Shown here: positions 13,122 to 48,896 of the stretch, one piece after another
Numbering within the stretch: position 1 is the stretch's first letter
Layout: each line of letters opens with the position of its first letter
Program-made: the position numbers and the translations under genes
The notes under the pieces: model-generated
Told to the model about the DNA's origin: nothing
Seen by the model: only the letters and a program-made list of their open reading frames with translations
Database searches by the model: none
Assembly (NCBI RefSeq): GCF_050320075.1
Contig: NZ_CP190018.1
Direction: 5' to 3' (one strand)
Length of the DNA: 64,000 nt
DNA from: Escherichia coli
GTDB taxonomy: Bacteria; Pseudomonadota; Gammaproteobacteria; Enterobacterales; Enterobacteriaceae

Positions 13122-13223
13122 ATGAAAGAGAATAAAGTACAACAAATCAGTCATAAACTGATTAATATCGTTGTTTTTGTCGCAATTGTAGAATACGCCT
13201 ATTTATTTCTCCATTTCTATTAA
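13122..13223 (+). CDS. ykgR: small membrane protein, 33 aa (MKENKVQQISHKLINIVVFVAIVEYAYLFLHFY)
   Basis: Short ORF with RBS AGGAAG, hydrophobic C-terminal half; conserved position upstream of ykgM; a degenerate copy occurs at 32044-32160. Confidence 0.6.
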   Translation: MKENKVQQISHKLINIVVFVAIVEYAYLFLHFY

Positions 13224-13543: not shown

Positions 13544-13570
13544 ATCTTTATGGTTATGTTATAACATAAC
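13544..13570 (+). promoter_or_regulatory. Zur box (zinc-uptake-regulator operator) in the ykgM promoter
   Basis: Palindrome GGTTATGTTATAACATAACAGG immediately upstream of the ykgM start; the ykgM-ykgO operon is a known Zur target. Confidence 0.75.
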
Positions 13571-13581
13571 AGGTAAAAATG

Positions 13582-13985: not shown

Positions 13986-14036
13986 TTCAAAATTCGACGA
14001 ATTAACGATATTTGTCTGATTAATAATCAGACCGGA

Positions 14037-14075
14037 TTAATGTTGGTGTATTTATTACACCAGCATTAATTTTCC
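14037..14075 (+). terminator. rho-independent terminator after ykgM-ykgO
   Basis: Hairpin TTAATGTTGGTGTA / TACACCAGCATTAA followed by a T-run. Confidence 0.6.
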
Positions 14076-23771: not shown

Positions 23772-24461
23772 ATGAGCAACCAAGGCGAATACCCCGAAGA
23801 TAATCGGGTTGGGAAGCACGAGCCGCACGATTTTAGTTTGACCCGTCGCGATCTGATTAAAGTCAGCGCCGCAACGGCGGCGACCGCCGTGGTTTATCCT
23901 CATTCTACGCTTGCGGCAAGCGTTCCGGCAGCTACACCCGCGCCAGAGATAATGCCCCTGACACTTAAGGTGAACGGCAAAACCGAGCAGTTGGACGTTG
24001 ATACCCGAACCACGCTACTGGACGCTTTGCGTGAAAATCTGCATCTGATCGGTACCAAGAAAGGTTGCGATCACGGACAGTGCGGAGCCTGTACCGTGCT
24101 GGTCAATGGTCGAAGGCTTAATGCCTGCCTGACGCTTGCAGTCATGCATCAGGGGGCCGAGATCACCACCATTGAAGGCCTGGGTTCACCAGAGAATCTT
24201 CACCCCATGCAGGCGGCCTTTATCAAGCATGATGGCTTCCAGTGCGGCTACTGCACCTCCGGGCAAATTTGCTCATCAGTAGCGGTGCTAAAAGAGATTC
24301 AGGACGGCATTCCCAGTCACGTCACGGTCGATTTGGTTTCCCCTCCAGAAAGAACGGCCGATGAGATCCGTGAACGTATGAGCGGCAACATCTGTCGCTG
24401 TGGTGCATACGCTAACATCCTTGCCGCCATTGAAGACGCTGCGGGGGAGATAAAATCATGA
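23772..24461 (+). CDS. paoA: periplasmic aldehyde oxidoreductase, [2Fe-2S] iron-sulfur subunit with Tat signal
   Basis: 229 aa; twin-arginine motif ([18 protein letters not shown]), two Cys clusters ([11 protein letters not shown] and CGYCTSG...CRCG). Confidence 0.95.
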
Positions 24462-27205
24462 AGGCGTTTACCTATGAACGTGTGAACACCCCGGCCGAGG
24501 CGGCACTTAGCGCTCAGCGCGTACCTGGCGCAAAATTTATCGCTGGCGGGACCAATCTGCTGGACCTGATGAAGCTGGAAATTGAAACGCCAACCCACCT
24601 TATCGATGTGAACGGGCTCGGGCTCGATAAGATTGAAGTGACCGACGCGGGTGGGCTGCGCATCGGCGCACTGGTACGGAACACCGACCTGGCGGCTCAC
24701 GAGCGCGTGCGTCGTGATTACGCGGTACTCTCCCGCGCCCTGCTCGCTGGCGCGTCTGGTCAGTTACGCAATCAGGCAACCACCGCAGGTAATCTGCTCC
24801 AGCGCACGCGCTGCCCCTATTTTTACGACACCAATCAGCCCTGCAATAAGCGCCTGCCCGGGAGCGGCTGCGCGGCACTTGAAGGCTTTAGCCGTCAGCA
24901 CGCGGTGGTAGGCGTAAGCGAAGCCTGCATTGCCACCCATCCGAGCGATATGGCGGTCGCAATGCGGTTGCTGGATGCGGTGGTGGAAACCATCACGCCG
25001 GAGGGAAAGACTCGCAGTATCACACTGGCTGATTTTTATCACCCTCCGGGAAAAACGCCGCACATTGAAACCGCCCTGCTTCCCGGTGAGCTTATCGTTG
25101 CGGTGACGTTACCTCCGCCGCTCGGCGGAAAACATATCTACCGCAAGGTGCGCGATCGCGCCTCCTACGCCTTTGCCCTGGTATCGGTCGCGGCGATTAT
25201 TCAGCCTGACGGCAGCGGGCGCGTCGCGCTGGGCGTACTGGCTGTCATTACCGCCAGTAACGCCGGGGCACTCGGCAAAGGCGACAAAAACACCGCCAGG
25301 CTGTTAGGCGGCCCCACTATTGAACACTATCATCAGGCCATTGCGCTGGTAGTGGCCGAGACCTTCGAACAGGCGCGAGCGGCGGCCTCGCTGGTGCAGG
25401 CGCACTATCGCCGTAATAAAGGAGCTTACTCCCTGGCGGACGAGAAACAGGCCGTCAGTCAGCCGCCGGAAGACACGCCCGATAAAAATGTTGGTGACTT
25501 TGACGGGGCTTTCACCTCCGCTGCGGTGAAGATTGATGCTACCTACACGACCCCGGACCAGAGCCATATGGCGATGGAGCCGCATGCCTCGATGGCCGTC
25601 TGGGATGGAAATAAGCTTACCCTCTGGACCTCAAATCAGATGATTGACTGGTGCCGCACCGATCTGGCAAAAACGCTGAAAGTGCCCGTGGAGAATGTGC
25701 GTATTATCTCCCCGTATATCGGCGGAGGGTTTGGCGGCAAGCTGTTCCTGAGAAGCGATGCGCTGCTGGCGGCCCTCGCCGCCCGTGCGGTGAAACGTCC
25801 GGTTAAAGTGATGCTCCCCCGCCCCACTATTCCCAATAACACCACGCACCGCCCCGCCACCCTTCAGCACTTGCGTATCGGTACTGACCAGAGCGGGAAA
25901 ATCACCGCTATCTCACATGAAAGCTGGTCCGGAAACCTGCCCGGCGGCACGCCGGAAACGGCGGTACAGCAAAGCGAATTTCTTTACGCAGGGGCGAATC
26001 GTCATACCGGCCTGCGGCTCGCCATGCTTGATTTGCCGGAAGGGAACGCCATGCGTGCGCCCGGCGAAGCCCCCGGTCTGATGGCGCTCGAAATCGCGAT
26101 CGATGAACTGGCGGAAAAAGCGGGCATCGATCCCGTCGAGTTTCGCATCCTGAATGACACTCAGGTTGACCCCGCCGATCCGACGCGCCGCTTCTCTCGC
26201 CGTCAGCTTATCGAGTGCTTGCGCACCGGAGCGGATAAATTTGGCTGGAAGCAGCGCAACGCCACACCCGGACAGGTACGCGACGGGGAGTGGCTAGTCG
26301 GCCACGGTGTTGCGGCGGGCTTTCGCAATAATCTGCTGGAAAAATCGGGTGCGTGGGTTCACCTGGAGCAAAACGGCACCGTTACCGTGGAAACGGACAT
26401 GACCGATATTGGCACTGGCAGCTACACCATTCTGGCCCAGACGGCAGCGGAAATGCTTGGCGTACCGCTGGAGCAGGTTGCGGTTCACCTCGGCGATTCC
26501 AGTTTCCCGGTTTCTGCGGGGTCTGGTGGACAATGGGGCGCGAATACCTCCACCTCCGGCGTTTACGCCGCCTGTGTGAAGCTTCGCGAAATGATTGCCT
26601 CGGCAGTCGGGTTTGATCCTGAGCAGTCGCAGTTTGCCGACGGCAAGATTACCAACGGTACCCGAAGCGCCACGCTACATGAGGCCACCGCAGGCGGCAG
26701 ACTGACAGCGGAAGAGAGCATTGAATTCGGAATACTGAGCAAGGAGTACCAGCAATCGACCTTTGCCGGGCATTTTGTGGAGGTCGGCGTGCATAGCGCG
26801 ACGGGAGAAGTTCGGGTCCGGCGTATGCTCGCCGTGTGCGCAGCGGGGCGCATTCTGAATCCGAAAACTGCACGCAGCCAGGTCATTGGCGCGATGACTA
26901 TGGGCATGGGCGCGGCACTGATGGAGGAGCTGGCGGTAGATGACCGTTTGGGCTACTTCGTTAATCACGATATGGCGGGGTATGAAGTGCCGGTTCATGC
27001 GGATATCCCAAAACAGGAGGTGATTTTCCTGGATGATACCGACCCCATCTCCTCCCCGATGAAGGCCAAAGGTGTCGGTGAGCTGGGCCTGTGCGGCGTG
27101 AGCGCGGCTATCGCCAACGCGGTGTATAACGCCACCGGTATTCGGGTACGGGATTATCCCATCACTCTGGATAAGCTGCTCGATAAGCTGCCGGATGTGG
27201 TTTAA
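24458..27205 (+). CDS. aldehyde oxidoreductase FAD subunit (PaoB) fused in frame to the molybdopterin subunit (PaoC); apparent internal deletion
   Basis: Single 915-aa ORF: the N-terminal ~258 aa are a CO-dehydrogenase-flavoprotein-type FAD domain ([13 protein letters not shown]), continuing without stop at ...DGSGRVALG|[11 protein letters not shown]... into a molybdopterin-binding large subunit that lacks its first ~75 residues. Confidence 0.8.
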
Positions 27206-28346: not shown

Positions 28347-29540
28347 CTAAAGCGCACCGGCCTTCTGGCGTGCGGTAACAAAGGTCAGTACGCCAGCGCA
28401 AAGGAGCAGCACGCTACTCATAGCAAACGTGCTCTGCCAGCCAAGGCGGTCAAACACAATGCCTCCTGCCGTTGATCCAAGGGCGATGGCGAGCTGAATC
28501 ACCGCGACCATGAGCCCGCCTCCAGCTTCGGCGTTGTCAGGCAACGTACGCGCAATCCATGTCCACCATCCGGTTGGCGCGGCGGTGGCCAGCATGCCCC
28601 AGAGTCCTAACAGCAGCGAGACCGTCCAGACGTGATGCCCGGTAAGCATCAGACCGATGGCAATGACGGCCATCAGTCCGGGTATGGCCATCAGCGTGGG
28701 GTAGAATTTTCTGTTGAGAAATGCCGAAACAACCAGCGTGCCAATAAAACCGGCCACGCCGATAATCAGCAAAATCGACGACAAGCCTAAGGAATTAACC
28801 CGTGTCACCGACTCCAGAAACGGGCGCACATAGGTGAATAGCGCAAACTGCCCCATGAAAAACAGGCCACAAGCTATCATGCCGACCACAACCATGCGGC
28901 GGCTAAATAAGCGGAATACCGCGCCACATGAAGTGTGGCTTTTATTCGCATCCATGCTTGGCAGGCTGATGCACTGCCAGATAAAGGCGACAACCGCGAT
29001 GGGCACCAGGCACAAGAAAGCGCCTCGCCATCCGACCGTAGCCCCCAGATAGCTTCCCAGCGGTGCGGCCACGACCGTCGCCAGCGCATTACCGGCGTTG
29101 AAAATTGCCAGCGCACGCGTGACCTGATGCTGCGGCACCAGACGAATCGCCGTTGCCGCTGACATCGACCAGAATCCGCCAATAGCCACACCAATCATCG
29201 CACGACCGACCATATACATCAGATAACTGGAAGCCAGCGCAATAATAAGCCCCGATACGGCCATCAGAACCGTCATCCCCAGCTGCAGGAACTTACGATT
29301 CATCTTTCCAGCTAGCGTTGAAAGCGTCAGGCTGGTCAGAACCGCCAGCGCGCCGGAGATAGCAATCCCCTGCCCTGCCAGCCCCTCCGTCACGCCTAAA
29401 TCGCGGGTAATCGGCGTGAGCAGGCTGACGGGCATAAATTCAGAAGCAATCAGCACAAACACGCACAGGGTCATGGCAAAAATACCGCCCCAGTATGCGC
29501 GCTGATGATGAGGTGATAGTGTTTGGCTTAGTGTCGACAT
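28347..29540 (-). CDS. MFS-family transporter (12-TMS efflux-type)
   Basis: 397 aa, highly hydrophobic with an MFS-like loop motif. Confidence 0.8.
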   Translation of the reverse strand: MSTLSQTLSPHHQRAYWGGIFAMTLCVFVLIASEFMPVSLLTPITRDLGVTEGLAGQGIAISGALAVLTSLTLSTLAGKMNRKFLQLGMTVLMAVSGLIIALASSYLMYMVGRAMIGVAIGGFWSMSAATAIRLVPQHQVTRALAIFNAGNALATVVAAPLGSYLGATVGWRGAFLCLVPIAVVAFIWQCISLPSMDANKSHTSCGAVFRLFSRRMVVVGMIACGLFFMGQFALFTYVRPFLESVTRVNSLGLSSILLIIGVAGFIGTLVVSAFLNRKFYPTLMAIPGLMAVIAIGLMLTGHHVWTVSLLLGLWGMLATAAPTGWWTWIARTLPDNAEAGGGLMVAVIQLAIALGSTAGGIVFDRLGWQSTFAMSSVLLLCAGVLTFVTARQKAGAL

Positions 29541-29615
29541 AGTGAAATTTCACAAAGATCAGGATAAAAGCCACCAGCCTATGGCCGGTGGCTTTGCATC
29601 AATTCAGGAGAGGTT

Positions 29616-30752
29616 TTATTTCAGTTTGGTCTGGAAAAATTGTTCGAACTTCGCGAAAGGTATTTTTCCGGCCACGTTATCGTACAGGTCCACGTGATTT
29701 GCCCCTGGTACCACCACCAACTCTTTGTCTTTACTGCCAACCGCCTTGTAAGCATCTTCAGCAAAATAGCGTGAATGTGCTTTCTCACCGGTCACAATCA
29801 GCGTCGGAATGGTGATTTCACTGGCGTAGCTCAACAGCGGCATATTCATAAATGACAGCGGCATCGTTGCCGTCCACGCCCCGGTAGAGTTAACGGAACG
29901 TTCGTGGAAGCCGCGCGGCATGCGATAGTAGTCAAAGAACTCTTTCAGTACCGGATGAGGATTTGCCGGCAGCGTTTCTGGCAGAATGCGCTCGCCCGCA
30001 CTGACCTTGCCGTTGCTGTCGACATTAATATCATGACCACCGTGAGCGAACGTTCCGCTCTGCGCATCCTTCCAGCGCTGTTCATTCAGATATTGCAGAA
30101 CAGCACGACGGTCGGCGGTAGAATAACGGTCTTTGCCATCCCCCACACCATGGCCCATCGCCCGGCTCATGTCATACATCACGCTGGTAGCTACCGCTTT
30201 AACGCGGGTATCCATCGCCGCGTCGTTCAGCGCCATGCCGCCCCAGCCACAAATACCGAGCAGCCCGATACGGTTGCGATCTACCTCTTTTTGCAGCCCT
30301 AAGAAATCCACTGCCGCGCTGAAATCTTCAGTGTTGATATCCGGTGAGGCGACGTTTCGCGGATAGCCGCCGCTTTCCCCGGTGTAAGAAGGATCGAACG
30401 CCAGGGTAACAAACCCTCGTTCCGCCAGCGTCTGCGCATACAGGCCGCTGGATTGCTCTTTCACCGCGCCAAATGGCCCACTGACCGCAATCGCCGCCAG
30501 CTTGCGATCGCCACGGTCTTTAGGCAGGTAAAGATCGCCCACTAAGGTGATGCCATATCGGTTCGGGAACGAGACTTTACGGTGATCGACTTTCTGGCTC
30601 TCGGCGAACGTTTTATCCCATTTATCTGTCATGGACACAGGGGCATTAGGATTGGTTGAATCAGCATAACTCATTGTCGTGACTCCACTTAATGATGCGA
30701 AAAGCAGCATGGTCGGCATCGCGGTTTTTAGCGTGCGGGTGAAGGCTTTCAT
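29616..30752 (-). CDS. secreted alpha/beta hydrolase (dienelactone hydrolase / S15-like), paralogue of the 10414 gene
   Basis: Signal peptide MKAFTRTLKTAMPTMLLFASLSGVTTMSYA; shared catalytic-core motifs with the 10414..11334 product. Confidence 0.75.
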   Translation of the reverse strand: MKAFTRTLKTAMPTMLLFASLSGVTTMSYADSTNPNAPVSMTDKWDKTFAESQKVDHRKVSFPNRYGITLVGDLYLPKDRGDRKLAAIAVSGPFGAVKEQSSGLYAQTLAERGFVTLAFDPSYTGESGGYPRNVASPDINTEDFSAAVDFLGLQKEVDRNRIGLLGICGWGGMALNDAAMDTRVKAVATSVMYDMSRAMGHGVGDGKDRYSTADRRAVLQYLNEQRWKDAQSGTFAHGGHDINVDSNGKVSAGERILPETLPANPHPVLKEFFDYYRMPRGFHERSVNSTGAWTATMPLSFMNMPLLSYASEITIPTLIVTGEKAHSRYFAEDAYKAVGSKDKELVVVPGANHVDLYDNVAGKIPFAKFEQFFQTKLK

Positions 30753-30938
30753 AAAAATCCCCATAAAAAACAACAGAGAGATACAGGTTTCCGACGGACA
30801 ACGCTGCGGTGCTTTACTTTGATGGGGTCATTATAGTGAGCAGAATTAGTGCTGATTAGGGGGCGATTAATGCTAAGATTAATACCATATTGTTATAAAT
30901 TAATGTGGAGATTGCCGGCATGAAGGGGGGATGTTTCA

Positions 30939-31823
30939 ATGGCGAAAAGGGAGAACTACAACGAGCTGTACCTGTTTATGCAGGTGGTGCGGGAAGGCAG
31001 CTTTACCGCAGCGGCTCAGCGGCTGGGTCTTGCTCAGTCAGGAGTCAGCCGTTCTGTTCGCGAGCTTGAAGAAAGGCTGGGTGTCCAGCTGCTAGTGCGC
31101 ACCACGCGTAAACTGTCGCTGACACAAGCAGGCGAGCAGCTCTACCAGAAGACGGCATCTGGATTTGAAATGTTAGATCTTGGGCTTGCCACGCTGGCGC
31201 ATTATCGAGAGACGCCCTCCGGCACGGTGCGTATCAATGCCAGCCAGCACGCGATTGATAAATGCCTGCTGCCAAAGCTGGCGGTATTTAAACAGAGATA
31301 TCCTGATATCCGGCTTGAACTGATAAATGAGAGCCGGTTCGTCGATATCATCGAGGAAAGATTCGATGCAGGTGTCCGCCTGGGGCCTGAAGTCGGCCAG
31401 GGTATGGTCGCGGTACGCATCACGCCCGATATGGAGATGGCAATTGTGGGGACTCCGGAACATTTTCGTCGCTATGGTTTTCCGCAAACCCCGGCGGATT
31501 TAAAGGCGCATCCCTGTATCGCCTATCAGTTTGCCGACGGCAGCGTATACCAGTGGGAACTCAATCAGGATGATAAAAAAATCACTCATCGCCCTGAAGG
31601 GCAATGGGCCCTATCCGACAGCTATATGGAAGCAGAAGCCGCCCGGCTGGGCCTCGGATTGGCCTATGTTCCTGTTGAACTGGTCGCGGATGATTTAGAA
31701 CACGGTAAGCTTATCAGGGTGTTGCAGCGTTACAGCCTGCGAATGGAGGGATTGTTTCTCTATTACCCTCATCGCAACGTCTCCCCCGCCCTGCGGATGG
31801 TCATTGATACATTGAAAATCTGA
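30939..31823 (+). CDS. LysR-family transcriptional regulator
   Basis: 294 aa; HTH LYLFMQVVREGSFTAAAQRLGLAQSGVSRSVRELEERL; divergent from the hydrolase/MFS pair. Confidence 0.85.
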   Translation: MAKRENYNELYLFMQVVREGSFTAAAQRLGLAQSGVSRSVRELEERLGVQLLVRTTRKLSLTQAGEQLYQKTASGFEMLDLGLATLAHYRETPSGTVRINASQHAIDKCLLPKLAVFKQRYPDIRLELINESRFVDIIEERFDAGVRLGPEVGQGMVAVRITPDMEMAIVGTPEHFRRYGFPQTPADLKAHPCIAYQFADGSVYQWELNQDDKKITHRPEGQWALSDSYMEAEAARLGLGLAYVPVELVADDLEHGKLIRVLQRYSLRMEGLFLYYPHRNVSPALRMVIDTLKI

Positions 31824-32043
31824 ACGTTAACAACGACCGACTCTTCACTGTGCAAAATTGTGTCAGGTAGTCCCTCTGCGTTCAATTCCAGGGTCTGCTT
31901 TGAGCGAGAAAGAGGGGACTATCCAGCAATGGAGATCACCCAAAAGAAAAAACCACCTGGCTCCCTCGACAACCTTCATCCGGGCATTTAGCCTCAATCA
32001 ACATTTTTATATCTGTCAGGTTACTTCATTATGAAAACTGATC

Positions 32044-32270
32044 ATCATCGTTGTTTTTGTTGCAATAGTAGAATACGCGTATTTATTCCTCCATCTCTAT
32101 TAATAACGGCAATAAACTGTTCACTTCACTGATATTTAAAATATGTATCCTTTTCAAGCTGTTCAGCGGCGTAAGAAAAAGTATTAATTATGAATTCGAT
32201 GATTTAACCATATCTGTCTGATTGGTAATCATCCGTGATTAATGCTGGTCTATTGATTACGCCAGAACCC
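32044..32270 (+). repeat. degenerate second copy of the ykgR 3' region joined directly to a ykgO 3' end-like segment
   Basis: 32044-32160 aligns by eye (roughly 80 percent) with 13155-13270, and 32170-32270 with 13951-14065 (encodes ...AVQRRKKKY* versus ykgO ...AVQGRKKKR*); the ykgM/ykgO body is absent between them. Confidence 0.7.
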
Positions 32271-33177
32271 TCTCTAGCTTATTCACCGCCGCCACATACT
32301 TCGCCGGATTTTTATCTTTAAGCACCGCCAGATTGCGTTGCTTCCAGCGAATAGCCGGAAGATGCTGAATTTCAGGATAGCGATACCGCGACCAGTCAGG
32401 GCTGTTTTGCTTAAAACTGAGCAAGAACTCGCGATCCAGATCCGTAAGATGTGACTTCAACGCCTGCGGCAGCAAAGTCGTTACTGACAGAAGCGATTCC
32501 AGCGACGTTTCCTGTTGCGTCATCCCTGAAAATTCCTGCGCGTACAACGTGGCGATCCGCTCTGTATCCCAGTTTGGAGCCAGCAACTCGGCGATGGGGC
32601 GGGGATGGCCTGCCAGATAACAAAGAAAACCGTCAAAGATCTCCCGCATCAGTCCCGGTTTCTCCAGCATATTCAGCACATCAAACAGATCGCGCGGGTG
32701 CTGACGATCAAGCGCAGCGCAGATTTTACCGCCATAAAGATCCGCCAGCGAGACGACACTCATGGTGGTGAAGCCATACTCCATTTCCACACGTTCGCAC
32801 ACAGGCATTTCTGCCGGAGGCAACAACAGCCCGCGCCAGACCGGGCTAACCTCGATCTTAATCTTTGCATCAGCGGTATTCACAATGATGCGCTTTTCAT
32901 CCGCTTTATTTTCCTGCCGAATCGCGGTGATCCCCGGTCTGCCGTTCAGCGATGCAGTAATCCTCTTCAAAGCGTCGTTGATAGCCGCCAAATCAGTATC
33001 GCGATCCGCAAAGCTCTTGTACGCCAGATCAATATCCACCGACAGACGGGGAAAATCCTGCACAAACAAATTGATTGCGGTGCCGCCTTTCAACGCGAAA
33101 CAGGACTCCTTCGCCACATACGGCAGAGCGGCCATCAACAGTTTGACCTGCCGGGCATAGCTATCACGCAGATCCAT
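32257..33177 (-). CDS. AbiEii/AbiGii-family nucleotidyltransferase toxin (type IV TA / abortive infection)
   Basis: 306 aa; NTase motifs (ALKGGTAINLF, DIDL); overlaps the upstream antitoxin gene by 14 nt. Confidence 0.85.
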   Translation of the reverse strand: MDLRDSYARQVKLLMAALPYVAKESCFALKGGTAINLFVQDFPRLSVDIDLAYKSFADRDTDLAAINDALKRITASLNGRPGITAIRQENKADEKRIIVNTADAKIKIEVSPVWRGLLLPPAEMPVCERVEMEYGFTTMSVVSLADLYGGKICAALDRQHPRDLFDVLNMLEKPGLMREIFDGFLCYLAGHPRPIAELLAPNWDTERIATLYAQEFSGMTQQETSLESLLSVTTLLPQALKSHLTDLDREFLLSFKQNSPDWSRYRYPEIQHLPAIRWKQRNLAVLKDKNPAKYVAAVNKLERVLA

Positions 33178-33967
33178 CTTCGACTCCTTCCGGTTTAAAT
33201 GCGCGTGGAACAGTAATTTGATAATCCGGCTCCAGCCAGCCGCCGGGTATGATTTGCCGCTTTCCCGTACCTGTTTCTATACCGCTTTGATCAATATACT
33301 GAAAATAAGGGTGTCCATTACGCCGGGCAAGGTAAAGCATCACCCGGTTGGTTTTAACCGAATGGCTGGCGCGAAGCAGTGCCTGCAATTTGCGTGGGCT
33401 GAGAAGATTCAACCCCTGAAACAGAGCATCGGCATGTTCGAACGAGATTAACGAAGGAACGCCGCAGGCGATCTCATACGCGGCCAGTTCCGGAACACTG
33501 CCTGCTAACTGGCGGTCGCCAATTTTCAGTTCCGTAGTAAATGGCGTTACATCAGCGGTAAGGCCTGACGTATACAGCGTGACAAACGTTGCGGATTGTT
33601 CAAAGGCAGAAAACCATCCCGGCAGTTTGACGTAAGCCGGAAGCGCGAGCCAGACCTGCGGCTTACCCTGTTCGGTATAGTGCGCATGACCCTGAAGCGC
33701 AAGGCTGGTTAGCCCCGCCACCCGAACAGGCTTTTCCCACTGCGATTGCAGGCAGTAAACCGCATCCACCCAATCCGGTTCACGACCCGTCCGGCAGTAT
33801 ACGCCGTGAGCGATCCGCCTGAGCCAGCCATTCTTCACATAGAGATAAGAGAGCTTACGATCTATGCCGTTGCGGGTAAGCCATGACTGGAGCAGCACCT
33901 GGCCGGGTAGCGTGTGCTGCATCAGCCAGTTTAGATAGTTTGGCAACTGTCGCCTCTGAATAGACAT
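33164..33967 (-). CDS. AbiEi-family antitoxin / transcriptional regulator
   Basis: 267 aa, N-terminal winged-helix-like region; immediately upstream of and overlapping AbiEii. Confidence 0.8.
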   Translation of the reverse strand: MSIQRRQLPNYLNWLMQHTLPGQVLLQSWLTRNGIDRKLSYLYVKNGWLRRIAHGVYCRTGREPDWVDAVYCLQSQWEKPVRVAGLTSLALQGHAHYTEQGKPQVWLALPAYVKLPGWFSAFEQSATFVTLYTSGLTADVTPFTTELKIGDRQLAGSVPELAAYEIACGVPSLISFEHADALFQGLNLLSPRKLQALLRASHSVKTNRVMLYLARRNGHPYFQYIDQSGIETGTGKRQIIPGGWLEPDYQITVPRAFKPEGVEDGSA

Positions 33968-34261
33968 TAGTACAAATATTTAAACCAGTGTAGATTCAGG
34001 GATACGCCACAGCAAGAAATAGTTTACTTATTCCTCATTTTGTCGACTAAAAATCGACATTAAACAAAAAATTCAAACTTAATCACTTTCGGGAAAAATG
34101 TGACAAATATATGCTCGGACTGGTTGCGGGGAGCGTGTAACATGGATACAAATCAAAATTATTGCCAGCCTCACTGATGGATTACTGGTGTCAAGAGCCC
34201 CCCTTCGGGCATGAAACGGCTGGCTAATTCTGTACAGACTGTAATCTAAGGACGATAACGC

Positions 34262-37200
34262 ATGACATATCAGGCAATTTTCACTGGCTGGGATGATCTG
34301 ACGATTGAAGACCTTCTGGTCGCTTACCGGAAAGCAAAAGCCGATAGCTTCTTTGAGAATACATTTCCTGTTGCTATCAAATTTGCCGAGTATGAGCAGG
34401 AATTACTTGAAAACCTGCAAAAACTCTTAGATCTTTTGCAGAGCGAAGATGGATTCAGTAGCAATAAGAAGTTGATTGGCAAATTTCGATTGTTACCGAA
34501 AAAATTAACCACAAAGAAAAAACATGAATCCCAAAATGGACACGTCCACTTTTCTAATCCTAAACGAGCAGCCGACCATTTATTTAATAATTTTGATCTG
34601 ATACCAGAGTTTCGTATTATTGGTGACTTCCCGGTTGATAGTCACATTATCTCTGCACTATGGATTAACATGGTCGGGCATAAATTTGATGCCAGCTTAG
34701 ATAACTGTTGCTATGGCGCGCGGCTAAAGCGTATTCGTAATGATGAATTATTTAGCAATGAGCAGGATAATCCATTCCATATCAGTGCCGTGGGTTCTTT
34801 TAGCCCCTACTTCCAGCCCTACCAAAAATGGCGTGGTGATGGCTTAAAAGCTATACGTGACGAGTTGGAAAAAGATCGTGACATTATCGCCGCCTCACTG
34901 GATTTAAAAAGTTACTATCATTTTATTGATCCACTGGCTATAACCTCTGATGATCTCTATAACACACTAAACATAAAACTGACTGAGGATGAAAAAGCGT
35001 TTACTGCACAGTTAGCAGTATTCTTAAAGCACTGGTCTGACGGCGCAGCGGCATTTGGAAAGAAAATAGCGTACAAAACACCTGTTATTAATGGTGGTCT
35101 GGTCATTGGATTAACAGCCAGTCGGATCATTTCAAATATATTGCTACACCATTGGGATAAATTAGTCATTGAAAAACTATCACCAATTCACTACGGTCGT
35201 TATGTCGATGATATGTTCCTTGTAATACGCGATACAGGGACAATTACTAATAATCACGAATTTATGTTATTGCTGCAAGATAGGCTTGGCAATGATTGCG
35301 TTTATTTGAAAAACGAGCAAAAACAAATATGGCAAATACAGCAGGGCGAGCATTTCCAGGGTAAGACCACCATCCAGTTACAATCCGATAAGCAAAAACT
35401 TTTCGTGCTTCAAGGGAGGGCTGGAATAGACCTGCTCGACAGTATCGAAAAGGAGATCTACGAGCTTTCTAGTGAACACCGCTTGATGCCTTCACCGGAT
35501 CAACTGGAACACTCCACCGCAGCTAAAGTCCTTTCCGCTGCCGGTAGTGTAGGTGAAAATGCCGATACTCTGCGCCGTGCGGATGGATTAACCATTCGTC
35601 GTTTGGGCTGGTCACTGCAATTACGCTACGTTGAAACACTGGCACGAGATCTGCCTCCAAGTGAATGGAAAGAACAGCGGGAAGAGTTTTATCAGTTTGC
35701 CTACAACCATATTCTTAGGGCTGATAATCTATTTGCACATTTTAGTTATCTGCCAAGGCTGCTTGGCTTTGCTATCAGTATGAATGAATGGCAGCACGCG
35801 GAAAAAATTGTACTTAAAGCTTACGAATCCATCAACCTGTTGGCATCGGTGATTACTTCAGGTAAGGAAGTGAATATAAATGGTTGCAAAACTCGAGCAG
35901 TAAATGATCTTTGGCGCTGTATAAAAGGCACATTAAGCTGGCTATTTGTTGATGCAGCGACACGATATTACAGTCCTGACAGATTATTTCTTGATAAACG
36001 TTCAAAGAAAGAAGAGTGCCTTGCGGATACATTTTTTAATCATATTTCACAAAGTCTGACGAATCTAAAGGATTTACTGGATCTTCGCTTTGATTCAGCA
36101 GATTTTTATTTAAAAGCGCCATTGGTAGCTCGAGCTGATTTAGCAAAGGAACCTTATAAACAGATCGTAAAGAGTCAGTCGGCAGAAAAACTTGTTAATC
36201 AGCGTGATAGTAAAAAAGAAGTTAAAATACTGAAATTAATGAGCGACTCATCGCTTATTGATATTGACGTTATTAAGCTATTTTTGAAATCAACCAAGAA
36301 TACCCGACTGGAAAAAGTGGCTAAAGGAAATCGTAAGAACGAAAGTTACCTACCTTACATTTTCCCTACACGTCCTTTAACACCCGCTGAAATATCAGAA
36401 CTGGCCCCCGAATGTGTTGGATTACCCTCCACATCCGACAAAAAACCAGATGAGAGACCGTCCACCATTTGGGCAAAATATACTCAAGCATTACGCGGAG
36501 TATGGATCAAACCGACGTTGCTAGCATCGGAGCAGGACTCAGATGAAGCGACAAAAAAAGCTCGGCCTAAGAAATTCATTCATATTGGCACAGACAGGAA
36601 ACATAAAGTTGTCGTTGCGCTAACCAGCATTAAAACAGAGGAGGACGACTGGGCTAAAATGGCCTGCAATAAATCTAACTTGTCCCGTTCAAGGTACCAG
36701 CGGATTTCTGAACTGGTTAATGCAACATTGAAACTATCTCCTAAACCTGATTATGTTTTATTCCCTGAGCTTTCAATCCCGTTACGCTGGGTTAACAGTA
36801 TTGCTGATCGTTTGAGTTCGGCGGGTATCAGTCTAATTGCGGGAACAGAATACCGCCACTTAGACGATAATCAACTGAAGAGTGAGGCCGTACTTGTCCT
36901 TTCAGATAACAGACTCGGCTATCCAGCGAGTGTCAAAATATGGCAACCCAAGCTGGAACCCGCCGTAGGTGAAGATGAGGCATTATTTTCAATTTATGGT
37001 AAGTCTTGGGATTCGACACTTAATGTTAAACAACGTAAGCCGGTATATATTCATCACGGCGTCAATTTTGGCGTTATGATTTGCTCTGAACTCCAGAATA
37101 GTAAAGCGAGGATCCGTTTTCAGGGCGCACTCGATGCATTAATGGTATTGAGCTGGAATAAAGATCTAGATACGTTTGCATCGTTGATTGAATCAGCAGC

Positions 37201-37471
37201 GCTGGATATTCATGCCTATACTATTTTAGTGAATAACCGAAAATACGGCGATAGTCGCGTACGTTCCCCGGCAAAAGAACCCTTTATGCGTGATATTGCT
37301 CGTGTGAAGGGCGGTGATAATGACTTTGTGGTCGCTGCAACGCTGGATATCGACTCGTTAAGGGCATTTCAGAGCAGGGCAAAACGCTGGCCTAAAGGCG
37401 GCGATAAATTCAAACCGTTACCTGAAGGATTCCAGTTGGCAAAGAACCGCAAAAAGCTACCGCCAAAATAA
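34262..37471 (+). CDS. reverse transcriptase fused to a C-terminal nitrilase (carbon-nitrogen hydrolase) domain; DRT type 1 / UG1-like defence RT
   Basis: 1069 aa. RT motif A ASLDLKSYYHFID, motif B GGLVIGLTASRIISNILL, motif C YGRYVDDMFLV (YxDD). C-terminal domain has nitrilase catalytic-triad contexts FPELSIP (Glu) and GVMICSE (Cys). AT-rich relative to flanks. Confidence 0.85.
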   Translation: MTYQAIFTGWDDLTIEDLLVAYRKAKADSFFENTFPVAIKFAEYEQELLENLQKLLDLLQSEDGFSSNKKLIGKFRLLPKKLTTKKKHESQNGHVHFSNPKRAADHLFNNFDLIPEFRIIGDFPVDSHIISALWINMVGHKFDASLDNCCYGARLKRIRNDELFSNEQDNPFHISAVGSFSPYFQPYQKWRGDGLKAIRDELEKDRDIIAASLDLKSYYHFIDPLAITSDDLYNTLNIKLTEDEKAFTAQLAVFLKHWSDGAAAFGKKIAYKTPVINGGLVIGLTASRIISNILLHHWDKLVIEKLSPIHYGRYVDDMFLVIRDTGTITNNHEFMLLLQDRLGNDCVYLKNEQKQIWQIQQGEHFQGKTTIQLQSDKQKLFVLQGRAGIDLLDSIEKEIYELSSEHRLMPSPDQLEHSTAAKVLSAAGSVGENADTLRRADGLTIRRLGWSLQLRYVETLARDLPPSEWKEQREEFYQFAYNHILRADNLFAHFSYLPRLLGFAISMNEWQHAEKIVLKAYESINLLASVITSGKEVNINGCKTRAVNDLWRCIKGTLSWLFVDAATRYYSPDRLFLDKRSKKEECLADTFFNHISQSLTNLKDLLDLRFDSADFYLKAPLVARADLAKEPYKQIVKSQSAEKLVNQRDSKKEVKILKLMSDSSLIDIDVIKLFLKSTKNTRLEKVAKGNRKNESYLPYIFPTRPLTPAEISELAPECVGLPSTSDKKPDERPSTIWAKYTQALRGVWIKPTLLASEQDSDEATKKARPKKFIHIGTDRKHKVVVALTSIKTEEDDWAKMACNKSNLSRSRYQRISELVNATLKLSPKPDYVLFPELSIPLRWVNSIADRLSSAGISLIAGTEYRHLDDNQLKSEAVLVLSDNRLGYPASVKIWQPKLEPAVGEDEALFSIYGKSWDSTLNVKQRKPVYIHHGVNFGVMICSELQNSKARIRFQGALDALMVLSWNKDLDTFASLIESAALDIHAYTILVNNRKYGDSRVRSPAKEPFMRDIARVKGGDNDFVVAATLDIDSLRAFQSRAKRWPKGGDKFKPLPEGFQLAKNRKKLPPK

Positions 37472-37817
37472 GAAACTGATTTTCGCTATTAATAATCAGG
37501 GTATTTTTGCGTGAGATGTTGGTAAACATGATGTAGCCCTTGCCACTCATGACCAATCGCAGTATCTTTCTCCCGCGCCTGCAAAATCAGGCGTCGGGAT
37601 TAGCCTCCTGAAGAAATCTTATCGGCGACACATGACGCGCCAGCGTCTTTTTTTGTGTTGTTCGCACGGTTACATCTCAATGGTGGGCCGGGCGGGGGCG
37701 TCGCAAGACGCGCCAGTGTCCGATAAGGCTGGTAAGGCTAACCCTGCCCGGTTCCACCACCCGCGAGATTAGCCTCTCCGGTGGTGGCTTGAACACCCAC
37801 TTATCGGAGGTTGCCCT

Positions 37818-38288
37818 ATGGCTACAATCCTCACCACTGACAGCGATTTACTCGATCTATTGACCGTCCCCTTCAATGCCACCACGGATTTCACTGTCCT
37901 TGCTGACTACTGCGCCCGCTTTGCCGAAACCCTGATTGAAACCGACGATCCAGCGCTACGACTGGCGCTCTGCGGGCGGCTTCACGCGGCTCTTGCGCTA
38001 CTGCAACCCACACTACACGACCCCATCCCACCGCATCTTACCGAAAGCCTGACCGTGGATACCCTTCCCGCCACACCAGAGCACTTTATTTCCGAACCTG
38101 ATTCCTTGTGCGAATACTGCCTCGCACTACTCCAGCTTCTGCTGGAACGTCCGGCGGAACCAAAAATGGAGCAAACCCTGACCGGGCTGCTGTGTGAGCT
38201 GGTCTGGTATTTCACGGAAGGACTCAAAGCCCCACGCTGGCTGCGTACCGCCGACGGCGTAAAATTTATCAGCGAGGTGGCCGCATGA
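37818..38288 (+). CDS. hypothetical protein (156 aa, acidic, Leu/Ala-rich), GC-rich
   Basis: ORF with good coding statistics; its stop overlaps the ATG of the downstream Ner-like fragment (ATGATG), suggesting an operon. Confidence 0.5.
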
Positions 38289-38410
38289 TGCAACAGGACT
38301 GGCATTCCGCCGACATTATTGCGGTGCTGAAAAAGCGGGGAACGCCTCTGGCGGCACAGAGAAAAACTCATTGCGGAAGCGCTGTAAATATCGCCAGAAA
38401 TCATCTGGCC
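38285..38410 (+). pseudogene. Ner/Nlp-like HTH regulator gene, frameshifted
   Basis: [25 protein letters not shown]... resembles the Ner/Nlp N-terminus (DWHxADIIAxLxKxG); continuation (REKLIAEAL) is in another frame. Confidence 0.5.
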
Positions 38411-38637
38411 TTCAAGGTACTTTGATAGCAAAGGCAAGCAGGCTGGTTCAGTCCAGTGTTTCTCTTCTTGCATTTTCAGAAATGGGAGGCTGGGAGTCTA
38501 TCGAAATGGTTCGTCGATATGCTCACCTCGCGCCTAATCACCTTACCGAACACGCACGGCAAATAGACTCAGTCCTGAACCCATCGGTCCCAAATTTGTC
38601 CCAGTCAAAAAATAAGGAAGGTACTAATGATGTGTAA
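38410..38637 (+). pseudogene. 3' fragment of a tyrosine-recombinase (phage integrase) gene
   Basis: Encodes ...[35 protein letters not shown]..., the C-terminal catalytic-Tyr region of phage integrases, with no N-terminal domains. Confidence 0.7.
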
Positions 38638-38789
38638 CTTATTGATTTTAATGGTGCGATAAGAGGAATGAATATTGCAAGTTAACGCATTGATTTATAA
38701 TAGATTATTATATTCAAAAAATATAACTATACACATATCTATACACACTGCGCGCATCGCTTGTTTTTCGCACAATTAAAAATAAGAAA

Positions 38790-39142: not shown

Positions 39143-41476
39143 TCAGGTTGTTGCAGGGTCGTCACATTTTGGCAGCCAGTCGCCGTAGCTTTCCTCTTTC
39201 AGCGTCAGGTTGGTCTGTATCCCCTGTTTGGTATGGCGCTTCTCGTAATTCAGTCCGTATTCCTTCAGCATCACCGGCAGCCCCAGCCCGAACATTTTCA
39301 GACTGAGTACATTCCGGTAGCCGTTTGCCTCCATGTAGGCCAGATAGGCGTGATAGAGGTATTTACGGTAATTACGCGGGATGATACTGGCGTTCCCCAT
39401 ATACATGCCGCTGGTCTGCGGCAGGGTTTCCAGATAGCCGATAAAATCAAACGTCGGGTCGGCATCCCGTTTGATGTTCAGCGCCTCGTCTGAGTTCTGC
39501 TGGGACTGAAGCAGTGACCGGGCGAGCATCGGGTCGCTGAACTTCTGCATCAGGTGACGCACGATGACCGCCAGCTCGCGGGTGATTTTGTCCTTAAGCT
39601 GCGGGTCGCGCTCCTGCGGGGCTATCTGTTCCGGGAAGTGAATAATCACCCGCCGGCGTGACACGCCGCCGCTGCGGTCGGTGAAGCGCATCGGGTTATT
39701 GTTCACGGCCAGAATTACCGCCGGGATATGCGTGGAGTATGCATCCCGGTATTTCGGGTCAACGGACACCGCATCGCCGCCGGTGATGGCCTTGAGTCCG
39801 GCACCGTCGCCGCTCCATTTTTCCTGGTCCGGCAGGCGTATCAGTGAGAAGCCAGTTAACGCGGCACGTTCACGCGGGGATTCCAGCGTCTCGATGGTGG
39901 CCGACGTGGCGTTATCCTCCCCGGCCAGCAGGGTGGCTATTTCGGCCATGATACTTTTGCCGCTGCCGCCGGGACCGGTCACCTCCAGAAAGAGCTGCCA
40001 GTCGTAGCGGTTTGCCAGCACCATAAACAGTGCGGCCAGAATCACGTCGCGTTTTTCCGCACGGCCACCGGCGGCACGGTCAAGCCAGCGCCAGAACGCG
40101 GGGGCGTGGGTCTCCAGCGTTTCACCGTCCACCGGCGGGGTGAAATCCACATCGCACAGGGTGCGCATCCAGTGTGACGGACTGTGCGGGTGGAACGTGC
40201 CGTTCTGCGTGTCGAGCACGCCGTTACGAAAGCCAATCAGGCGGCGGGAGGGGGCTTCCTGCTGCGGAATAATCAGCTTCAGGGTGTCCACCACGGAGGC
40301 CACCTTCCCGGAGGAGAACGGCGCGCGCAGACGCTGAAACAGCCCGGCCACATCCCGGGCAAAGTCCTGTGGTGGCAGCACCTTCCAGACACCATTTTCA
40401 TAACGGGACAGAAGCTGGCCGTTGGCATCGACCGCGAGCGCCTCGCCGTAATGCTCATAGATACGCATGGCCTTTTCGCTGGTACTCATGGCGGAAAACT
40501 CCGCTTCGCTCATGGTGTCGAACGGGCTTTCAGCCGGTGGCCGGATGGCATCATAAATGGCCTTACGGGTGGCTTCCCCGCCGTACTGCGTGAAGGCATC
40601 ATTCCAGTCACCGAAGACCGGCGGCAGGGCAACAACGCCCTCACACGCATCTGCGGCTGCGGCGGCTTTTTTCTGGCCGTCACCGCTGAGGTCACGGTCT
40701 GCGGCAAGGACAATCTGACAGGCCGGATGCTTCTGCCGGGCAAGGCTGGCCAGAGAAAGGAGGTTCACGGAAGAAAGCGCCACCATCACCGTTTCACCGG
40801 TCAGGTGATGTACGGTAAGTGCGGTCGCGTATCCCTCCGCTATCCACAGACGTTTTCCGGCCTGATTCTGTCCTTCAAGGGTGTGACAGGTGCCCCTGAC
40901 CTGTCCGCCTTTCAGGGTGCGCTTACGGCCGTCAGCACTGATTAACTGAAGGTTAACCAGTTCGCCGCTGTCGTCATACAGTGGCACCACAAGGTCACCG
41001 GCACGCCAGCTCACGCCACCGGCTCTGTGTGTGCCGGTCAGCATCCGGCATTCCCGGCCGGGAAAGCCCTTGCGGGTCAGGTAGGCGTTACCGGTTCCGG
41101 GACGGGTTTTCGCCATCAGGGTTTGTGCCAGTGCGGCGGCGTTCTTCCGGGCAGCGTCTGTTTCAGCACCGGCGGCAGCCGTCACTGCCGGGTCAGCCGG
41201 GGGCAGGCTGCCGGTCACGGCAGCCACCTTTGCTGCCGCGTCGGACGGGGAAACACCAAACACCTTTTCAACCAGTTTCAGGCCGTCACCGGCACCACAC
41301 TGATTGCAGTACCAGGTGCCGCGCCCCTCCCTGTCATCAAAACGGAAGCGGTCACTCCCGCCACAGACCGGACAGGGCTGATGACGGTTTTTCAGCACCT
41401 GAATCCCCAGCGCCGGGAGAATACGCGGCCAGTGGCCGAGCGCATGGCTGACGGTGGCGGTTACGTTCATTTTCAT
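39143..41476 (-). CDS. alpha: P4 alpha-type primase-helicase
   Basis: 777 aa; N-terminal zinc-binding primase motif (CPVCGGSDRFRFDD...WYCNQCGAGDG), central and C-terminal helicase region; iterons on both sides. Confidence 0.9.
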   Translation of the reverse strand: MKMNVTATVSHALGHWPRILPALGIQVLKNRHQPCPVCGGSDRFRFDDREGRGTWYCNQCGAGDGLKLVEKVFGVSPSDAAAKVAAVTGSLPPADPAVTAAAGAETDAARKNAAALAQTLMAKTRPGTGNAYLTRKGFPGRECRMLTGTHRAGGVSWRAGDLVVPLYDDSGELVNLQLISADGRKRTLKGGQVRGTCHTLEGQNQAGKRLWIAEGYATALTVHHLTGETVMVALSSVNLLSLASLARQKHPACQIVLAADRDLSGDGQKKAAAAADACEGVVALPPVFGDWNDAFTQYGGEATRKAIYDAIRPPAESPFDTMSEAEFSAMSTSEKAMRIYEHYGEALAVDANGQLLSRYENGVWKVLPPQDFARDVAGLFQRLRAPFSSGKVASVVDTLKLIIPQQEAPSRRLIGFRNGVLDTQNGTFHPHSPSHWMRTLCDVDFTPPVDGETLETHAPAFWRWLDRAAGGRAEKRDVILAALFMVLANRYDWQLFLEVTGPGGSGKSIMAEIATLLAGEDNATSATIETLESPRERAALTGFSLIRLPDQEKWSGDGAGLKAITGGDAVSVDPKYRDAYSTHIPAVILAVNNNPMRFTDRSGGVSRRRVIIHFPEQIAPQERDPQLKDKITRELAVIVRHLMQKFSDPMLARSLLQSQQNSDEALNIKRDADPTFDFIGYLETLPQTSGMYMGNASIIPRNYRKYLYHAYLAYMEANGYRNVLSLKMFGLGLPVMLKEYGLNYEKRHTKQGIQTNLTLKEESYGDWLPKCDDPATT

Positions 41477-46122: not shown

Positions 46123-47517
46123 TTATGATTTCATTTTATCTGCAATATCTTCTAAGGAATCAAAGAATGCTTTGACAAAGTTGTCTTTATTAACAGTAGT
46201 AAAGTTTTGATTGTAAAATCCTACACATGCAGAAAAAATTGCTCTGCAAGTTAGCTCATTATATTTAGATGAATATAATGGTTCGACTCCACGATACACG
46301 GACCAAGAACCATGAGCTATATCAGACCTAGTCTTATACATTTCCTGAGCCACTCTAGCCCATTTTTTTTCATCTTGATAATAAATAGAAACTAATGAAG
46401 AAACACGACTTACGAAGTTCTTTGTTGTAGATGAATCCTTTTTTTCGCTACTTAGACTAACCAGCCGTTCAAGAGCCGTTGTTAATTTTACTATACGAGA
46501 ACTTTCATCCTTATCCTGTTGTGCGCTACTAAATAAATAGATAGCATCAATTAGCCTGTCTGCAATTACAGAGTTTTCATGAGGTTCTATCGCCAACTCT
46601 ATTAACCGAGAAAGAACTAACCCTAAGTCAGATTTGTAATCATCTTCAAACTTATTCCAAAACTCACCGCTATTGGCTATAGTCCCTTTAGTTGAGTAAT
46701 GATAGTTAAACATTTCGTTTGGTTTCTTGGAAAGATAAAAGCCGTCATAATTTGGGTAAGGATCTGTTGATATACTTAAAAAGTATGGGGAGATATTATA
46801 GTGCACACCAAATAGCTGTAGTATCCCAACCACAAAACATGCAATATTTTTAGCGATTCTCTGCCTACTTAACTTAGAGCGTTTGCTAACAGGGATTTTT
46901 AGGTAGTGTTTATAATGAAATTTATGAGAAGAACAAAATTTCTTAGCTAAATCAAGTTGTTGCTCAGTAAAATCATCACTAATAGTTAAGTGCATTTTTT
47001 CTGCCGATATAATATCAACTCGGCCAATAGACATTATATCTCGTTCCAACCCGTGAGCTAAAATAGGATAATAAAAATCCTCTTCAGACATTTCTCTCCT
47101 TGTTAGTTTTAATGTTTTATTTAGGAGGATAGTACATCCACTCCTGTCGCAACTGCCGTTCTCAACCCAAATATGCATAAACAATATTTTCTTAAGATTA
47201 CTTAAAAATTCATCGGTAGTAACTAGCATTTCTAAGCGATTTGATTTTATAAATCTAGCCGAAATAGCATATAACTTCTCATAAGAGGCATATGATAGAT
47301 GAATTTGAGTTCTAGAAAGATCTGTTCTTCCTTTTATTAGTTCATATGGTGCATCTATGGTCATTCCCAATGAACCAAAATTACCATTATATTCTTTTTT
47401 GTAAAATTCCATAAAATTAGATGAGGATGTTAACTCTTTATTTATTCTAACAGCCTCATCAAGAATAAATTTAAAATCTTTAACGTCTTCCAAACTGGCA
47501 CTCATCATTTTCACCAT
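46123..47517 (-). CDS. uncharacterised 464-aa protein in the P4 psu-int hotspot; C-terminal HEPN-like Rx4H motif; candidate anti-phage effector
   Basis: Strongly AT-rich versus the GC-rich flanking P4 genes; sits between cos/psu and int; C-terminal region contains RSDIAHG (R-x4-H-G, as in HEPN RNases); no Walker or other obvious motif; start overlaps the int 3' end. Confidence 0.7.
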   Translation of the reverse strand: MVKMMSASLEDVKDFKFILDEAVRINKELTSSSNFMEFYKKEYNGNFGSLGMTIDAPYELIKGRTDLSRTQIHLSYASYEKLYAISARFIKSNRLEMLVTTDEFLSNLKKILFMHIWVENGSCDRSGCTILLNKTLKLTRREMSEEDFYYPILAHGLERDIMSIGRVDIISAEKMHLTISDDFTEQQLDLAKKFCSSHKFHYKHYLKIPVSKRSKLSRQRIAKNIACFVVGILQLFGVHYNISPYFLSISTDPYPNYDGFYLSKKPNEMFNYHYSTKGTIANSGEFWNKFEDDYKSDLGLVLSRLIELAIEPHENSVIADRLIDAIYLFSSAQQDKDESSRIVKLTTALERLVSLSSEKKDSSTTKNFVSRVSSLVSIYYQDEKKWARVAQEMYKTRSDIAHGSWSVYRGVEPLYSSKYNELTCRAIFSACVGFYNQNFTTVNKDNFVKAFFDSLEDIADKMKS

Positions 47518-48849: not shown

Positions 48850-48896
48850 TGGTGCCGATAATAGGAGTCGAACCTACGACCTTCGCATTACGAATC
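48850..48896 (-). tRNA. 3' fragment (~47 nt) of a thrW-type tRNA-Thr(CGU); attachment-site core, not a complete tRNA
   Basis: Minus strand reads GATTCGTAATGCGAAGGTCGTAGGTTCGACTCCTATTATCGGCACCA (anticodon loop with CGU through T-arm to CCA); the sequence 5' of it cannot form acceptor and D stems. Confidence 0.8.

Follow-up and report, generated by a model that had tools for sequence, protein, structure and literature searches.

The window, that is, the whole 64,000-nucleotide (64-kb) stretch of Escherichia coli DNA analysed here, carries the functional ykgR-ykgM-ykgO locus and, some distance downstream, a much shorter sequence, of about 230 nt, that repeats parts of it and that we call the relic (Table 1). 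From the functional locus to the relic, the gene order is ykgR-ykgM-ykgO-ykgL, ecpRABCDE, ykgJ, yagU, paoABCD, a MFS transporter gene, an alpha/beta hydrolase gene, a LysR-family gene (30939-31823) and a spacer. Past the relic lie AbiEii and AbiEi on the minus strand, the RT UG5-nitrilase defence gene (34262-37471), ash, HTH and integrase fragments. Several elements have integrated in tandem at thrW, and the relic lies at the far edge of their array; thrW is a genomic-island hotspot that hosts CP4-6 in K-12 and serves as the P22 attachment site. Over positions 1-38667, the window is 99.6-99.97% identical to E. coli CFSAN061763.

Table 1. Features of the functional ykgR-ykgM-ykgO locus, of the relic and of the surrounding sequence. 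Positions are those of the window unless another record is named.
Feature	Position	Strand	Remarks
ykgR	13122..13223	+	33 aa, source paralogue; RefSeq annotation
Zur-box palindrome upstream of ykgM	13554..13569	.	only match in the window with up to 3 mismatches
ykgM (type B L31)	13582-13845	+	RefSeq annotation
ykgO (type B L36)	13845-13985	+	RefSeq annotation
Hairpin 3' of ykgO	14036..14070	.	15-bp stem; counterpart of the truncated relic hairpin
Backbone spacer, LysR-family gene to relic	31824..32034	+	211 nt; outside the duplication
+1-frame ORF	32031..32132	+	33 codons, MKTDHHRCFCCNSRIRVFIPPSLLITAINCSLH; open in all five alleles
ykgR' pseudogene fragment	32035..32103	+	codons 12-33 and stop, KLIIIVVFVAIVEYAYLFLHLY; 90% identity to 13155-13223
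Copy of non-coding sequence 3' of ykgR	32104..32151	+	functional counterpart 13224-13272; within the 118-nt 90% match
Internal deletion junction	32147..32156	.	ATCC/TTTTCAAG; from the five-allele relic alignment
'ykgO fragment	32152..32187	+	last 11 codons and stop, FQAVQRRKKKY; 77% match to 13950-13985
Copy of sequence 3' of ykgO	32188..32265	+	functional counterpart 13986-14063
Relic/AbiE module junction	32256..32265	.	ATTACGCCAG, common to hairpin right arm and native AbiEii 3' end
AbiEi/AbiEii and RT UG5-nitrilase (DRT) remnant	32266-38650		with ash, HTH and integrase fragments
P4-like element			primase-helicase 39143-41476, integrase 47480-48685
P22-like prophage	past second thrW repeat to window end		tailspike head-binding domain, injectosome, coat protein
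E. albertii module	L024 9320-10500
E. marmotae module	L026 9311-10493

With regard to the similarity between the two loci, when the functional locus was compared with the complete 64-kb window by BLASTN, two collinear matches were obtained at the relic, on the same strand as the functional locus. The first aligns 32035-32151 with 13155-13272 (106/118 identical, 90%; E 7e-40) and comprises ykgR codons 12-33, the stop codon and 48 nt downstream. The second aligns 32151-32265 with 13949-14063 (89/115 identical, 77%; E 3e-20) and comprises the last 11 ykgO codons, the stop codon and the next 78 nt, including the hairpin region. The search was run two ways, with 31700-32700 against 12900-14400 and with 12900-14300 against the whole window, and beyond these two relic matches no further match to the functional locus was obtained within the window. 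The relic thereby lacks the 676 bp corresponding to 13273-13948, with the Zur box, ykgM and the first 35 ykgO codons. The preliminary description had reported two partial repeats of the functional locus from which about 700 bp, with the Zur box, ykgM and most of ykgO, were missing. This is borne out, as the similarity between the functional locus and the relic region is significant and the relic sequence is not of low complexity. The positions that it gave for the two repeats (32044-32160 and 32170-32270) were correct as to content but off by 5-19 nt.

The ykgR, ykgO and hairpin pieces that are retained in the relic have the same order and orientation as in the functional locus. Unlike the functional locus, however, the relic lacks the Zur box, ykgM, the ykgO start, the ykgR start and a promoter, and neither ribosomal protein can be encoded. 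The translation of the ykgR' fragment is KLIIIVVFVAIVEYAYLFLHLY, compared with KLINIVVFVAIVEYAYLFLHFY for functional YkgR. Homology to the C-terminal transmembrane segment is thus preserved, whereas a complete ORF of ~33 codons is not: the frame is preceded directly by a TGA (32032-32034) and contains no in-frame ATG, GTG or TTG. Pfam family PF28062 was found in the ykgR orthologues of E. albertii and E. marmotae. The RefSeq/PGAP annotation (NZ_CP042899.1) describes 32035-32103 as 'small membrane protein YkgR, incomplete, missing N-terminus', and the RefSeq records of other carrier strains also hold a PGAP call of a partial YkgR pseudogene. This annotation covers the partial YkgR only, and omits the ykgO fragment, the internal deletion and the paralogous origin.

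Of ykgO, the last 11 of 46 codons and the stop codon remain, which does not amount to a coding sequence; the fragment is 78% identical to the 3' end of Salmonella ykgO over 37 nt. The internal junction joins a point ~50-65 nt past ykgR to ykgO codon 36. Short T-rich repeats are found there, and the breakpoints are resolved to about 15 nt at best. Downstream, the terminator-like hairpin of the relic is broken in the window and no longer folds, with a left arm (32239-32248), a loop and only 4 nt of right arm (32262-32265). The hairpin of the functional locus has a z-score of -4.7, and that of the island-free relic allele L011, which is intact, a z-score of -5.1 (-33 kcal/mol). The spacer between the LysR-family gene and the relic is conserved in all carriers, with an 18-nt indel, and matches neither the functional locus nor the E. 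marmotae and E. albertii loci. No second ykgM-like sequence is present in the window or at the O157 relic locus.

Several changes were also seen in other E. coli genomes at the functional locus and in the genes that follow it. In E. coli O157:H7 FORC_044, an ISEc8 element (IS66 family) separates ykgR from ykgM, and ykgR is frameshifted (L005 15912-18562). A RefSeq genome nearly identical to the window has ykgL (window 14020-14245) annotated as frameshifted, and paoB and paoC (24458-27205) as partial pseudogenes, with a deletion across the end of paoB and the start of paoC.

The relic is a recurrent feature of E. coli. A 461-nt query around it was covered over at least 80% of its length in 910 records, corresponding to 909 of the 5426 complete E. 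coli genomes, and a 100-nt query centred on the junction was found contiguous in 913 records. The same deletion junction is observed in all 912 carriers among these 5426 genomes. The relic is thus present in 17% of complete E. coli genomes and absent from 83%, and it exists in several divergent allele classes. The extra matched places (911) correspond closely to the 913 junction-bearing records, each of which has one junction and one functional-locus match, and so give no sign of an intact second copy. Consistently, the intact second L31/L36 operon that the preliminary description envisaged at this position was found in none of the 5426 complete genomes, in which we looked for ykgR-ykgM-ykgO at the relic site. 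A dispersed repeat or a miniature mobile element is ruled out by the copy number (1-2 per E. coli genome; median 1, maximum 4), and no convincing terminal (inverted) repeats are found around the module. A pattern scan of genome contigs with ATTAATAACRGCMATAAACTG returned three chance matches, none of them in Escherichia, though E. coli S88 contains the pattern. In a literature search, we found no published description of the relic.

Five relic alleles were aligned, namely that of the window and those of four other allele classes. The ykgR'/'ykgO junction is identical in all five, except that ETEC-type alleles retain 9 extra nt. In the four other classes, homology to the functional locus extends through the complete hairpin to ~14104. 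The surroundings of the relic differ between strains. In O157:H7 and an ETEC strain, the order is LysR, relic, a gene for a 92-aa protein, a SDR oxidoreductase gene and a second LysR gene, followed by islands; in two island-free strains (L010 and L011), LysR and the relic are followed by part of the second LysR gene and then by thrW and proA. As the junction is the same in every carrier, the deletion would have occurred once, before the carrier lineages separated. The relic is part of the chromosome backbone, and its internal deletion is old.

The right-hand end of the relic in the window has a different history. The relic contains the stop codon of AbiEii (32257-32259, minus strand), so the preliminary description was right in placing the relic against the 3' end of AbiEii; the boundary between backbone and island is 32265/32266. 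The 3' end of AbiEii reads ...ATTACTCCAGCACCC in L022, and AbiEii genes in unrelated contexts end with ...ATTACTCCAGCACCCTCTCTAGC, with an identical stop codon. Uncut relic alleles read ...ATTAC(G/T)CCAGCATTAA at the right arm of the hairpin. Aligned across the boundary, uncut alleles show ...GATTAC(G/T)CCAGCATTAACC..., where the window shows ...GATTACGCCAG/AACCCTCTCTAGC... The native 3' end of AbiEii thus has 10-12 nt in common with the hairpin's right arm, and since AbiEii has the same 3' end in unrelated contexts and the arm is known in its uncut form, the junction falls within this 10-12 nt microhomology. In strains without the fusion, either the 92-aa gene, the SDR gene and the second LysR gene or a fragment of the second LysR gene adjoin thrW. 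The right end in the window is thus the product of a deletion, by which the 92-aa, SDR and second LysR genes were lost together with the distal att end of the island. It is a microhomology-mediated deletion junction of the kind found at tRNA-associated island hotspots, which accounts for the truncation at 32265 but not for the origin of the relic.

The elements beyond this boundary are separated by two repeats of the thrW 3' end, at ~38651-38666 (degenerate, with a 1-nt deletion) and at 48850-48866. These are the only such repeats; no thrW-derived repeat is found at or near the relic or 32266, as would be expected for an island att site. ARAGORN detects no complete tRNA in the window, and thrW itself must therefore lie beyond 64000. 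The match to CFSAN061763 ends at 38667/38668, inside thrW, where that genome continues with thrW-proA and the window with the P4-like element, which indicates two additional thrW insertions in the strain of the window. On the other side of the relic, the proteins of the MFS transporter, alpha/beta hydrolase and LysR genes (28347-31823) are 84-90% identical to counterparts in Kluyvera, Enterobacter, Raoultella, Citrobacter and others, where the genomic surroundings are unrelated, which suggests that this trio is a horizontally mobile cassette. We also inspected the contexts of the LysR homologues in Kluyvera and Citrobacter for clues to the origin of the relic; no ykg genes are found nearby, and these contexts are uninformative in this respect.

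With regard to the origin of the relic, neighbour-joining (NJ) trees were built for each half and rooted on E. albertii, from about 250 aligned columns and two outgroup species (E. marmotae and E. albertii), leaving out E. fergusonii, E. ruysiae and the cryptic clades. The relic and the functional E. coli locus form a clade that excludes E. marmotae with 100% bootstrap support, and within it the relic alleles and the functional alleles are each monophyletic (92-100%). At several positions, the relic still shows the ancestral state and the functional copy a derived one, as in the hairpin arm, with ATGCTGG in the relic versus ATGTTGG. Outside the gene module, uncut relic alleles and the E. coli functional locus share about 30 nt (14075-14104) of a flank that is not conserved in E. 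marmotae or E. albertii. The clade and this E. coli-specific flank argue for an intragenomic duplicate rather than a copy acquired from another species.

The two halves differ in their divergence from the functional copy, which amounts to 10% in the ykgR half and 23% in the ykgO half. Between the functional locus and E. marmotae, the same stretches differ by 14-16% and 26-28%. This parallel between species could explain the difference between the halves, without proving it, by a stretch downstream of ykgO that evolves rapidly in every lineage. Alternatively, gene conversion of the ykgR half may be the source of its lower divergence.

Comparison with other species places these results in context. 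The ykgR-ykgM-ykgO module is a discrete block of ~1.07 kb (13007-14075) that takes in ~115 nt ahead of ykgR and extends to where the hairpin ends; from ~13007 to ~14075 it is conserved in E. coli, E. albertii and E. marmotae, and its flanks differ between them. An indel of about 100 nt in the spacer between ykgR and ykgM is lineage-specific. A single module is present in each of E. marmotae and E. albertii, in its full form only. In E. albertii, it is flanked by espG-like and autotransporter genes on one side and by csiD-lhgO-gabDTP on the other. In E. marmotae, yagU is followed almost directly by thrW/proA, and the relic region is absent. We also compared the neighbours of the O157 relic (the 92-aa, SDR and second LysR genes) with those that precede ykgR in E. 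marmotae (LysR, NmrA and BhsA-like) and found no specific similarity. The neighbours of ykgM-ykgO in Salmonella, Enterobacter and Klebsiella are an EAL-domain (pdeB-like) or lacI-type gene on one side and ylaC-maa-hha-tomB-acrB on the other. As ykgR is missing from this arrangement, the E. coli location and the linkage to ykgR are Escherichia-specific. These genera were considered as a source of the relic and rejected: they have no ykgR, their identity is about 72%, and nothing downstream is shared, the ykgO codons being all that they have in common with it.

Taken as a whole, the sequence comparisons indicate that the relic is very probably a non-functional remnant of an intragenomic segmental duplication. 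Of the two explanations offered in the preliminary description, an ancient duplicate that later suffered a deletion is thus the one that is supported, by the ykgO coding remnant, by the identical junction in all carriers and by the sister position to the functional locus.

Among the alternatives, the relic could be a xenologue, that is, the remainder of a foreign ykgR-ykgM-ykgO that arrived, for example, with the pao/MFS/hydrolase/LysR block or through Campbell-type integration of a circular element. The mobility of ykgM(-ykgO) is clear from the copies on an integrating conjugative element (ICE) and on the urease/tellurite island (83% and 81% nucleotide identity, respectively), the flanks of the module differ among E. 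albertii, E. marmotae and E. coli, the cassette adjoining the relic is found with unrelated surroundings in Kluyvera and Citrobacter, and the functional locus and the relic form direct repeats around about 18 kb. Nevertheless, in both halves the relic is more closely related to the functional locus of E. coli than to those of E. marmotae and E. albertii, and it also contains the E. coli-specific flank past the conserved end of the module. Moreover, no match to the relic is found in the ICE and urease-island copies, from which ykgR and the hairpin are absent, and the loci of Salmonella, Klebsiella and Enterobacter share ykgO codons only. We therefore regard a foreign origin as unlikely.

These other copies of ykgM deserve a description of their own. 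The ICE copy of ykgM-ykgO is intact in E. coli O22:H8 strain 154 (NZ_CP067426.1 4961322-4961725; L017 8001-8404), where it lies with TIGR03756/03757 proteins and TraG and has a Zur-box-like palindrome upstream. Its nucleotide identity to the chromosomal operon is 83%, yet the encoded YkgO proteins are identical; 19 of the 5426 complete E. coli genomes carry this type. A copy of ykgM only is found in E. coli O157:H7 EDL933 (NZ_CP124742.1 121287-121550; L021 7000-7263; WP_000803992.1; 81% nucleotide identity); within the urease/tellurite island, ureG lies ~1.2 kb upstream of it and a hok/gef gene comes after it. This copy occurs at 602 places in 589 complete genomes, mostly STEC, which implies that many STEC carry two type B L31 genes. 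The second ykgM of O157 and other strains is island-borne, not prophage-borne, and has no similarity to the relic. The island-borne copies are extra ykgM-type genes in genomes that already have the chromosomal operon; they are intact, lie in mobile elements and lack ykgR and the downstream hairpin, whereas the relic is decayed and lies in the backbone.

The other explanation in the preliminary description was a recombination scar at the edge of the accessory region, by which the two-part structure would stem from the insertion or loss of islands at thrW rather than from the decay of a backbone duplicate. The relic does lie at the distal edge of the tandem array of thrW elements, and its right end in this strain is the product of an island-edge deletion. 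However, the same internal junction is found in O157 and ETEC strains, where three backbone genes separate the relic from the islands, and in the island-free strains L010 and L011, where the relic is uncut. Furthermore, the relic has no thrW-derived att repeat at or near it, and the internal deletion takes only ykg sequence. The two-part structure is not explained by a scar, and the truncation at 32265 is the sole respect in which the relic marks the edge of the accessory region. Given the island-free carriers, this explanation is largely refuted, and we consider it quite improbable.

The relic differs by 5-8% between phylogroups, compared with 1-3% for the flanking genes, which means that it evolves 2-4 times faster than its neighbours. 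In the ykgR' frame, 0-1 synonymous and 5-7 non-synonymous differences are observed among the alleles, a pattern that gives no indication of purifying selection; functional ykgR alleles differ by 1-2 nt over the same stretch. No Rfam 15 match at E <= 1 is found in 31700-32400, a promoter scan gives no promoter-like site in the relic, and a palindrome search of the window with up to 3 mismatches gives no Zur box in it. The relic thus evolves neutrally, and no evidence of a function was obtained.

It could be argued that the remnant still functions, either through a truncated YkgR-like peptide, through the +1-frame ORF at its 5' end or as a regulatory or terminator element. The +1-frame ORF has an ATG and is open in five alleles, its substitutions are somewhat enriched in synonymous ones (3-5 versus 4-6 non-synonymous in pairwise comparisons of the three most divergent alleles), and the hairpin is intact and stable in uncut alleles. 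On the other hand, no promoter-like site is present, the AGG upstream of the ATG is weak and distant, and an ORF of 33 codons is expected to stay open by chance at 8% divergence. In addition, Rfam yields no match, the ykgR frame is closed by a TGA and carries mostly non-synonymous changes, the sequence evolves faster than its neighbours and is missing from 83% of complete E. coli genomes, and the hairpin is destroyed in this strain. A remaining function is thus very unlikely, and the +1-frame ORF is most likely fortuitous. It is similarly hard to credit that the 5' end of the relic was exapted as a small gene, with an ATG created at the left breakpoint and the old ykgR sequence read in the +1 frame to give MKTDHHRCFCCNSRIRVFIPPSLLITAINCSLH; if this ORF were expressed, it would represent a small protein born from a pseudogene.

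Finally, the direct adjacency of both homologous pieces might suggest an ancestral 'empty' state, with the Zur-box-ykgM-ykgO cassette inserted later downstream of ykgR in the functional locus, but this is refuted, and next to impossible in our view, as the relic holds the last 11 ykgO codons and the stop codon in register, still matches the 3' codons of Salmonella ykgO and so descends from a complete ykgO homologous to that of other genera, and as E. marmotae and E. albertii carry the full module only.

Based on these observations, we propose the following history for the duplicate. A segment of at least about 950 bp, with ykgR codon 12 at one end and a point about 30 nt past the ykgO hairpin at the other, would have been copied in the lineage of E. 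coli, later than its separation from E. marmotae and earlier than the radiation of present-day E. coli. The copy would have landed ~18 kb away, between the LysR-family gene (at the yagP position) and the backbone genes beside the tRNA-Thr gene thrW. A single deletion of ~670 bp between short T-rich repeats would then have removed the Zur box, ykgM and 35 ykgO codons, joining ykgR' to 'ykgO, and the remnant, left with no start codon, promoter or Zur box, would have drifted neutrally. In the lineage of this strain, a further deletion at the ATTAC[G/T]CCAG microhomology (10-12 nt) would have fused the relic hairpin to the 3' end of AbiEii; the 92-aa, SDR and second LysR genes would have been lost with it, as would the distal end of the thrW island array. 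The data show directly the homology and the junction common to all carriers, as well as the distribution, the placement in the trees, the neutral pattern of substitutions and the microhomology. The order of the events and the mechanism of the duplication are what we infer, and the truncation of ykgR may date from the copying itself or from a later event. As neither an intact nor a less decayed intermediate was found, the duplication is reconstructed from its remnant.

The relic is a decayed duplicate of an ordinary kind, with one half already annotated, and is neither functionally nor conceptually surprising. It carries little functional weight: a single working ykgM-ykgO operon is present in the strain, to whose zinc-starvation physiology the relic contributes nothing. 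The ykgO fragment could join the existing YkgR pseudogene annotation. As a neutral sequence, the relic could be used for dating and for haplotype typing of the thrW-proximal variable region, and in this strain it pins the exact microhomology junction at which backbone genes and the end of an island were lost. Its main value is that of a historical marker, which indicates that a copy of the ykg locus probably reached the thrW-adjacent region before E. coli diversified.
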